Below are positions 10,093 to 10,909 of a stretch of DNA of 30,683 nucleotides, in pieces. Below the pieces are notes generated by a model. That model did not search any database. It was not told where the DNA came from and saw only the letters and a list, made by a program, of their open reading frames with translations. How positions within the stretch are numbered: the first letter of the stretch is position 1; each line of letters begins with the position of its first letter. Origin of the DNA: a virus; the UHGV virus genome UHGV-0109493, one strand, 5' to 3'. Position numbers and translations under genes: made by a program.

Positions 10093-10275
10093 ATGCCTGC
10101 ACCCTCAAAACATCAGGAGGCCGTCCGAAAGGGCGGTAGTGAAATACGAAAATTCAAAATAACTATTGAAACGGGAATAACTGGTGGAGATTTTGAGGAT
10201 GTATTCGAAGTGGATGATGACGCGACACCTGATGAAATTCATGACGAAGCAAAAGAAATTTTCTTTAACTACTGA
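10093..10275 (+). CDS. Hypothetical small protein with strongly acidic C-terminal half
   Basis: 60-aa ORF ending GGDFEDVFEVDDDATPDEIHDEAKEIFFNY. The GGAGG is too close to the ATG, so the start is uncertain. Confidence 0.3.
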   Translation: MPAPSKHQEAVRKGGSEIRKFKITIETGITGGDFEDVFEVDDDATPDEIHDEAKEIFFNY

Positions 10276-10318
10276 AATTACTCATATCATGAAATAAAAG
10301 ACGAGGAGGAAGAACAAA

Positions 10319-10495
10319 ATGGCTGATTTTGGTTCAACTAAATACAACGTCAGTTTTGAAGAATGGCATGAACTGTTAATGGAATATGCAGAGTTACGTA
10401 GTGGAAGTGCTGCTGATGCTGAAGTATGGCGTGATGACTATGAAGCAGGAAAAACTCCGGTCGAAGCATATTGTGATGAGTGGGGCGATGAATGA
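10319..10495 (+). CDS. Hypothetical small highly acidic protein
   Basis: Hand-translated 58-aa ORF MADFGSTKYNVSFEEWHELLMEYAELRSGSAADAEVWRDDYEAGKTPVEAYCDEWGDE with GAGGAGG upstream. Its stop overlaps the next ATG (ATGA). Confidence 0.45.
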   Translation: MADFGSTKYNVSFEEWHELLMEYAELRSGSAADAEVWRDDYEAGKTPVEAYCDEWGDE

Positions 10496-10909
10496 GCGAG
10501 ATTGACTATCAGGCGCTGCGTGAAGCAGCAGAGAAAGCAACTAAAGGACGCTACATCGTAGGGCATGCGTCAGTTAACCAGCACGGCAATATAACAGGGG
10601 TTTTTGTTTGTCAAAAATGGAAGGGAGATGCTGGCGGCGTGATTAGAATGTTATGTTAACTGCCTGACTGAAACAGGTGCCCAGGCATATGCCAATGCTG
10701 AATTTATTGCAGCTTTTAATCCAGAGGTTGCAATGGTTCTTCTGGATGAGCGAGAGGTCAAAAACAGGCTCATTGTTGAGCTGACAATGTGGATTAAGCG
10801 ACTGTCCCGCTCATTAAAGTACGCCAATAGTTTAAGCAGTTTGCCTGATCAGGTAATGGCGCATCTGAATCAGAACGGGCTGGTAAGCGAGGAGGATGTT
10901 TTACGGTGA
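10492..10909 (+). pseudogene. Ead/Ea22-like early gene split by an apparent +1 frame change near 10657
   Basis: Frame 1 reads MSEIDYQALREAAEKATKGRYIVGHASVNQHGNITGVFVCQKWKGDAGGVIRMLC then stops at 10657-10659. Frame 2 continues from 10658 as NCLTETGAQAYANAEFIAAFNPEVAMVLLDEREVKNRLIVELTMWIKRL to 10909. Confidence 0.4.

Follow-up and report, generated by a model that had tools for sequence, protein, structure and literature searches.

Two very small open reading frames (ORFs) with highly acidic products lie next to each other on the plus strand of UHGV-0109493, a virus genome of 30,683 nucleotides (the whole stretch is called the window here), and the initial annotation of this locus (10093-10909) considered them candidate anti-defence proteins that mimic DNA. 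The locus thereby raises three questions: whether such short ORFs are genes at all, what kind of element they belong to, and what their products could do for it. The comparisons described below indicate, with a probability of about 0.9, that the region represents an accessory cassette found in enterobacterial lambdoid prophages, mobile and with translationally coupled genes, that it encodes real, compact, acidic proteins, and that it is decaying in the window, where the gene for a protein of 58 amino acids (aa) alone is intact. The cassette would comprise, in this order, a Shine-Dalgarno (SD) sequence with a hairpin, a gene of the DUF7167 family (60 aa), the 58-aa gene (PHROG 519) and a variable gene of the Ead/Ea22 type.

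The ORF list confirms that both ORFs exist on the plus strand at the positions first reported, and the downstream one (ORF2, 10319-10495) is the clearest case of a gene. Its 58-aa acidic product matches phrog_519 over the full length (residues 1-58, E = 3.5e-21), with no match to any Pfam or NCBIfam family. PHROG 519 is an unnamed family of 55-60-aa proteins from phages and conjugative plasmids, and ORF2 keeps its motif AWRxDYxAGKTPxEA. When 1.84 billion representatives were searched exhaustively with HMMER, 58 relatives of ORF2 emerged at E ≤ 0.001; the scan of related loci with the ORF2 protein alone recovers close relatives only. The 29 full-length members, diverging down to 36% identity, give the consensus TK..x.FEEW...L...A...GGSA.D..AWR.DYdAGKTPeEAW.DEWG, with W37 and Y41 found in every member and W16, G44 and P47 in nearly all. 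All five residues are kept in ORF2, which departs from the consensus by three conservative changes (D22E, G28S and A36V). The ratio of nonsynonymous to synonymous polymorphism (pN/pS), calculated from 37 haplotypes, is about 0.11 for both the DUF7167 gene and the 58-aa gene (0.11 for ORF2), a value indicative of purifying selection. ORF2 also has its own SD sequence, GAGGAGG (10303-10309), located 9 nt 5' of the start and encoded by Glu codons of the DUF7167 tail.

That the ORFs are merely chance reading frames is suggested by their very short length and by the N-terminal extension of the upstream ORF, which behaves as non-coding sequence (see below). Against this stand two conserved families with dozens of diverged members, a strong third-position bias, the pN/pS of about 0.11 and confident AlphaFold2 folds, which leave the explanation a negligible probability; on these alignments and models, 10319-10495 and the canonical DUF7167 frame are not chance frames.

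The boundaries first given to the upstream 60-aa ORF (ORF1, 10093-10275, plus strand) did not hold, since it consists of a lineage-specific extension of 17 codons joined to codons 1-43 of a DUF7167 gene. Residues 19-60 match Pfam DUF7167 (PF23768) above the gathering threshold (38.2 bits with a cut-off of 24.4, E = 1.6e-9), corresponding to positions 1-50 of the 60 in the hidden Markov model (HMM), and share with this family the consensus MRKFKvxIETxxxGG..FEVeDDATxEEI..EAKDiF.N; ORF1 also matches the equivalent PHROG 1997 (phrog_1997, E = 1.2e-19). Protein and DNA alignments place the ATG start of the canonical gene, which in relatives encodes 60 aa (MRKFKIIIETGIAGGDFEDEFEVDDDATPDEIHDEAKDIFFNYCNYSYHEIKDEEEEQNG), 17 codons inside ORF1. 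Its stop codon (10324-10326 in the window) overlaps the start of ORF2 (ATGGCTGA). The conserved gene begins at 10144 and runs for 60 codons, and in the window it is damaged twice. The start codon (10144-10146) is ATA instead of the ATG of relatives, a change confined to the window lineage among related loci, and a premature TGA (10273-10275) replaces the TGC codon of the conserved Cys44. Most of the 38 aligned DUF7167 members have Cys at this position, within an N-x-C-N-Y motif. Beyond the TGA lies an untranslated remnant (10276-10326, plus strand), which contains codons 45-60 (NYSYHEIKDEEEEQNG), the original stop and the above-mentioned SD sequence of the next gene. The window DUF7167 is accordingly not a complete family member: it covers HMM positions 1-50 of 60 only and has lost the family ATG and the last 17 residues, in which Cys44, the CNYGYxEI segment and the acidic tail would lie. 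The NCBI Prokaryotic Genome Annotation Pipeline (PGAP) annotates here a 43-aa coding sequence (CDS) starting at the ATA.

The ATG at 10093 arises by a change of ATTTCT to ATGCCT, found in this lineage only, and is abutted by GGAGGG with a spacing of 0-1 nt. Because the pN/pS of the extension frame is 1.58, compared with 0.11-0.13 for the canonical gene, and because an in-frame TAA directly precedes the canonical ATG in 52 of the 82 related loci, the 17-codon N-terminal extension is, from these alignments, not conserved coding sequence. The lesions of DUF7167 are common to the window, the E. coli E21845/O/A chromosome, phage 'Rac' of strain 442/2 and one IMG/VR contig; they were therefore inherited and are not sequencing errors. 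ORF1 in the window is probably a dead or badly crippled allele, so that of the two adjacent candidates initially proposed ORF2 stands as an intact gene, while the window would contain at most one live gene. In a second E. coli lineage (the P0061 cluster with 139 member sequences), the DUF7167 ATG has changed to AGG, and an 87-aa ORF begins at another upstream ATG. The DUF7167 start codon has, as far as the alignments tell, been lost or shifted more than once, and the P0061 lineage adds the caveat to the dead-allele judgement that start shifts may sometimes be tolerated.

The translation-initiation region of the canonical DUF7167 gene (10115-10143, plus strand) is conserved in more than 70 related loci. 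It includes the SD sequence AGGAGG (10115-10120), the hairpin GCCGUCC-GAAA-GGGCGGU (10120-10137) and a 6-nt spacer to the canonical start, and folds with a ΔG of -14.2 kcal/mol (z = -3.3); the loop variants GAAA and GGCA, found among these loci, both keep the GNRA pattern. The folded hairpin would place the SD sequence within the normal range of the DUF7167 start codon. Covariation was weak, with one compensatory change from G-C to A-U beside mismatched intermediates, and the shuffle control was not significant (168/500). The claim that the SD sequence, hairpin and start form a proven RNA element was dropped for this reason, the structure being stable and conserved all the same.

The third gene of the cassette is represented in the window by an Ead/Ea22-like pseudogene (10492-10909, plus strand), recognised from the PF13935 match, the PGAP label 'frameshifted' and alignment to gp13 of the Shiga toxin (Stx) phage ArgO145. 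Its start overlaps the ORF2 stop (ATGA), and its N-terminal 46 residues correspond in frame to the first 45 of 139 HMM positions of PF13935 (E = 1.5e-10). The frame is not intact: relative to ArgO145 gp13, a deletion of 2 nt between 10644 and 10645 shifts it. An Ead/Ea22-like frame does follow the two acidic ORFs, as was first reported, but it is a pseudogene. Only the first ~290 nt are common with ArgO145 gp13, and the C-terminal part is similar to the gene located next after the cassette of E. coli 2009C-3133, so that the N-terminal segment looks, on the alignments, like a recombination junction.

These genes behave as a unit. Homology with phage ArgO145 starts at the SD sequence of DUF7167 (window ~10113) and ends inside the Ead gene, and ArgO145 carries the same three genes (gp15, gp14 and gp13) in an early-left region of exo-xis type, among other Ead/Ea22 genes. 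The 8-nt and 4-nt gene overlaps are kept in both E. coli 2009C-3133 and ArgO145. Among 80 IMG/VR viral contigs recovered with ORF2, 78 preserve the order of DUF7167 followed by the 58-aa gene, and the flanking genes are shuffled. The pair occurs in 1,749 of 5,426 complete E. coli genomes (~32%, at a coverage of at least 80%), of which the window allele (at least 99% identity) accounts for only 8. Judging from these comparisons, there is nothing exceptional about the window locus, a partly decayed copy of a prophage cassette that is very common but uncharacterised.

Decay could go further than this, and the whole window cassette might be functionless debris of a domesticated prophage, its acidity only a relic. 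Two inactivating lesions of DUF7167 and the Ead frameshift fall within 800 bp, and the lesions are common to the small clade of 8 genomes mentioned above. The 58-aa ORF is nevertheless intact, with a good SD sequence and conservative substitutions only, and its family is under purifying selection, which makes complete loss of function unlikely.

The acidity of both products is as high as originally stated. ORF1 contains 15 D/E residues of 60, including 12 in the last 30 residues, and has an isoelectric point (pI) of 4.46 and a net charge of -8. The D/E count of ORF2 is exactly 16 of 58, with a pI of 4.05 and a net charge of -12. In a set of 40 prophage CDS, made up of 39 PGAP genes of the matching prophage and the 60-aa ORF, ORF2 and ORF1 are the two most acidic, with D+E fractions of 0.28 and 0.25 relative to a mean of 0.118 (standard deviation 0.047). 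The same is true of their relatives: the median net charge is -12 for DUF7167 and -10 for the 58-aa family, the median pI is ~4.1 for both, and 13 alignment columns in DUF7167 and 9 in the 58-aa family contain at least 60% D/E. Strong acidity is a conserved trait of both families.

AlphaFold2 models built from family alignments predict compact, novel-looking folds for both proteins. The 58-aa protein is modelled with helices at residues 13-26, 34-42 and 47-55 (mean predicted local distance difference test score, pLDDT, 87), forming a putative three-helix bundle around the conserved W16, W37 and Y41. DUF7167 (pLDDT 89) is modelled with strands at 2-8 and 17-23, a helix at 29-43 and a low-confidence acidic tail, which suggests a beta-hairpin and a helix, followed by a disordered poly-Glu tail. 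An hhalign comparison of the two families indicates no relationship between them (probability 0.1%). Foldseek comparison with the PDB gave no match. The solved DNA mimics in the PDB include Ocr, ArdA, Gam, gp5.9, Arn, Ugi and acidic anti-CRISPR proteins (Acrs). In profile searches of all PDB sequences (E ≤ 10), neither family matched a phage inhibitor, and the PADLOC models of defence-system proteins gave no match at E ≤ 1 for any cassette protein; the profile searches proposed initially as a check on the anti-defence idea thus linked neither protein to the solved DNA mimics or to PADLOC families. Neither family has a functional label in Pfam, NCBIfam, PADLOC or PHROGs. Two apparent similarities were set aside, that of DUF7167 to ribosomal protein uL23 (E = 0.012) as a generic beta-alpha motif, and that of the 58-aa protein to the HA domain, suggested by a phmmer match to giant-virus-type helicase repeats with Pfam HA domains, on the hhalign probability of 7.8%. 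A literature search on DUF7167, PF23768, the PHROG identifiers and the protein accessions yielded no work beyond one machine-learning anti-CRISPR prediction for phrog_519, in which members from Kuttervirus phages were flagged without experiments (PMC9409062).

Beyond the E. coli-type cassette each family is found in diverse mobile elements. The 58-aa family is present in 197 phage records, ~180 of them from Kuttervirus and other Ackermannviridae; its homologue in Kuttervirus Vi01 is located just 3' of the major capsid gene. Further homologues are encoded by a KP34-like podovirus and, directly after the replication gene A, by P2-like prophages. The family also occurs in 553 plasmids, including 516 conjugative ones. 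A copy with 83% identity is carried by ~410 IncI2-type plasmids, within an operon next to repA consisting of genes for a CaiF/GrlA-type regulator, DUF1187, the 58-aa protein, SPFH and NfeD. This copy is ~15 kb from mobC and the relaxase gene, on the presumed leading side and beyond repA, a position that is ambiguous and was not used as evidence. DUF7167 is known from 35 phage records, and its family alignments extend down to ~40% identity with conserved cores. It overlaps the start of the exonuclease gene in Guernseyvirinae and the end of the exonuclease gene in Enterococcus Herelleviridae. It is also found in a nin-type lambdoid region from Klebsiella and, in an early-left operon of P22-like type, is flanked by Dam and a homologue of pol III theta.

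Some smaller observations were made on the neighbourhood of the 58-aa family. In the IncI2 plasmid NZ_CP011294.1 (6793-7177), the upstream DUF1187 gene overlaps the 58-aa gene by 8 nt, and a DUF1187 gene is likewise present in the Rac-type prophage matching the window (1695-1883 of that prophage locus), where ralR and xis are its neighbours. The sequence pattern of DUF1187 with the 58-aa gene points to a recent exchange of small genes between phages and plasmids; a literature search on DUF1187 gave nothing useful. Escherichia phages EP_H11 (2006-2662) and vB_EcoM_IME392 encode a fusion protein in which a NADAR domain (PF08719, E = 7e-27) is followed C-terminally by the 58-aa domain. When DarT-type toxins ADP-ribosylate guanine in DNA, NADAR enzymes reverse this modification. 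Only these two phages, which are 95% identical, have the fusion, and it is no more than a lead.

The part of the window containing the cassette (9900-11400) matches the E. coli E21845/O/A chromosome with 100% identity and a GenBank record of 'Escherichia phage Rac' from strain 442/2 with 99.6% identity. In both records the region is part of a lambdoid prophage of Rac type with ttcA beside its integration site. The genes of this matching prophage run in the order int, xis, ralR, recT, recE, kilR, sieB, repressor, cro-like, ydaT, ydaU, ydaV (DnaC-like), DUF1627, DUF977 ('LygF'), the cassette, hokD/sok and the genes on the Q side. Searching the literature for lygF, as the neighbour is named in GenBank MN652886, gave unrelated papers only. 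Exact-match mapping located recT (50-883), sieB (4810-5298) and hokD (11558-11713) of E21845/O/A in the window, but not its Q, toxin and terminase genes. The assumption that the window represents the E21845/O/A prophage throughout was therefore rejected, the common part being the left arm up to hokD only, and on this mapping the prophage is mosaic, its parts joined shortly after hokD. In its late half (~11700-30683) the window differs from the late region of the E21845/O/A prophage. The best match in a complete genome covers 82% at 89% identity, and the lambda-like genes include those for a terminase, a portal, a ClpP-protease/capsid fusion and a tape measure.

The cassette occupies a delayed-early stretch, 3' of the replication genes (ydaU/ydaV/DUF1627/DUF977) and 5' of hok/sok. 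Its transcription would be shared with the early replication-gene operon: such co-transcription is the simplest reading, which we infer because no promoter-like or terminator-like site was found between the cassette and the upstream replication genes. The placement of the acidic ORFs in an early region together with Ea22 was thus right in so far as the site is delayed-early and follows the replication genes, but it is not the exo-xis region in which Ea22 of lambda is encoded. Downstream of the cassette, an 87-aa ORF (11039-11302, 'HP5' in GenBank MN652886) had no Pfam, PHROG, NCBIfam or PADLOC match and accompanies the cassette in just one contig among the IMG/VR loci. It is followed by a complete hok/sok type I toxin-antitoxin locus (11387-11713), which comprises the sok RNA (11387-11563; Rfam RF01794, 111 bits), the mok frame (11500-11706) and hokD (11558-11713).

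What the proteins do can be judged from their acidity, their spread and their positions. In the favoured explanation, which is largely in line with the initial one, each protein would act stoichiometrically as an acidic decoy that binds a host DNA-handling protein. The candidate targets are nucleases, RecBCD, nucleoid proteins and defence complexes directed at DNA, those of restriction included, and the decoy would protect incoming or replicating mobile DNA. Early expression, a binding target and DNA mimicry are the parts of this reading that we infer. As a whole, the functional part of the explanation has a probability of about 0.35; a decoy role is a tentative possibility for the 58-aa family and a somewhat more doubtful one for DUF7167. 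In its favour, unrelated phages carry members of both families as separate accessory genes within regions that are early or devoted to DNA metabolism, and their spread over temperate phages, virulent phages and conjugative plasmids resembles that of genes useful to any entering DNA, such as those of the ArdA/Ocr type. The initial claim of anti-defence by DNA mimicry is a modestly plausible guess with circumstantial support.

Several findings weigh against the decoy explanation. In the PDB profile, Foldseek and PADLOC searches, neither protein resembled, in sequence or structure, an anti-defence protein or a DNA mimic of solved structure. Charge and small size are together a weak predictor, because EVADES lists just 11 DNA mimics among 268 known anti-defence proteins. 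The Vi01 homologue, after the major capsid gene, is not in an obviously early position, and the IncI2 copy, in its SPFH/NfeD operon beside repA and ~15 kb from the relaxase, is not clearly in the leading region. The two families travel together only in E. coli-type lambdoid cassettes and so need not share a function. Finally, the frequent decay of DUF7167 alleles suggests, from the sequences compared, weak selection in resident prophages. A bolder version of the decoy explanation, in which the DUF7167 and 58-aa pair would be an unrecognised broad counter-defence module whose new folds serve as acidic decoys for DNA-targeting immunity or repair complexes, appears improbable at present.

The adjacency of these genes to exonuclease and replication genes suggests another role, namely that the proteins assist the DNA metabolism of the element itself as accessory factors, modulating or chaperoning an exonuclease, a recombinase or a replication initiator, rather than inhibitors of host defence; this is a doubtful but serious alternative. 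The proteins could also be modulators of development or host physiology that bias the lysis-lysogeny decision or induction in the manner of the exo-xis proteins (Orf60a, Orf61, Orf63, Ea8.5 and Ea22), the small members of which are described in published work as altering lysogenisation and induction (PMC7093339, PMC8614690, PMC6213356). Such a role agrees with the location of the ArgO145 cassette inside an exo-xis-type region among Ead/Ea22-like genes, and with the Ead/Ea22-type N-terminus that always follows the cassette. Structures of Orf63, Ea22 and Ea8.5 homologues are deposited in the PDB, and the profile searches of PDB sequences matched no exo-xis protein. Both families are moreover present in strictly virulent phages (Kuttervirus, Guernseyvirinae and Herelleviridae) and in plasmids, which make no lysogeny decision, so that a developmental role is rather unlikely. 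Set beside the decoy explanation, the own-metabolism and developmental roles are comparably likely.

If the decoy explanation is correct and either family inhibits a host DNA-targeting system, a very common gene of E. coli prophages and plasmids would join the short list of DNA-mimic-type counter-defence genes, and a function would be assigned to a cassette present in about one third of complete E. coli genomes. For annotation, the value of the analysis is that the 60-aa ORF can be described as a decayed DUF7167 allele and the Ea22-like gene as a pseudogene. From the window the 58-aa gene alone is worth cloning; intact alleles of the pair are offered by ArgO145 (gp15/gp14) and E. coli 2009C-3133 (WP_000753060/WP_001224945).

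Among known systems, the exo-xis proteins of lambda and Stx phages (Orf60a, Orf61, Orf63 and Ea8.5) and Ea22 are encoded in a similar mosaic early accessory region, and the cassette is linked to genes of the Ead/Ea22 type. The small exo-xis proteins are not homologous to those of the cassette, however, and the window cassette is situated on the right-hand side of the replication genes, with its Ead gene broken. The known DNA mimics are mostly elongated dimers, whereas the cassette proteins are known from predicted folds only, with no sequence or fold similarity to them detected. Both proteins nevertheless resemble T7 Ocr, T7 gp5.9, lambda Gam, plasmid ArdA and T4 Arn in being small, very acidic and encoded on mobile elements. 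ArdA-type genes are common to plasmids and phages, as is the 58-aa family, and T7 gene 5.9 is located directly upstream of the exonuclease gene 6, a position similar to that of DUF7167 in Guernseyvirinae.

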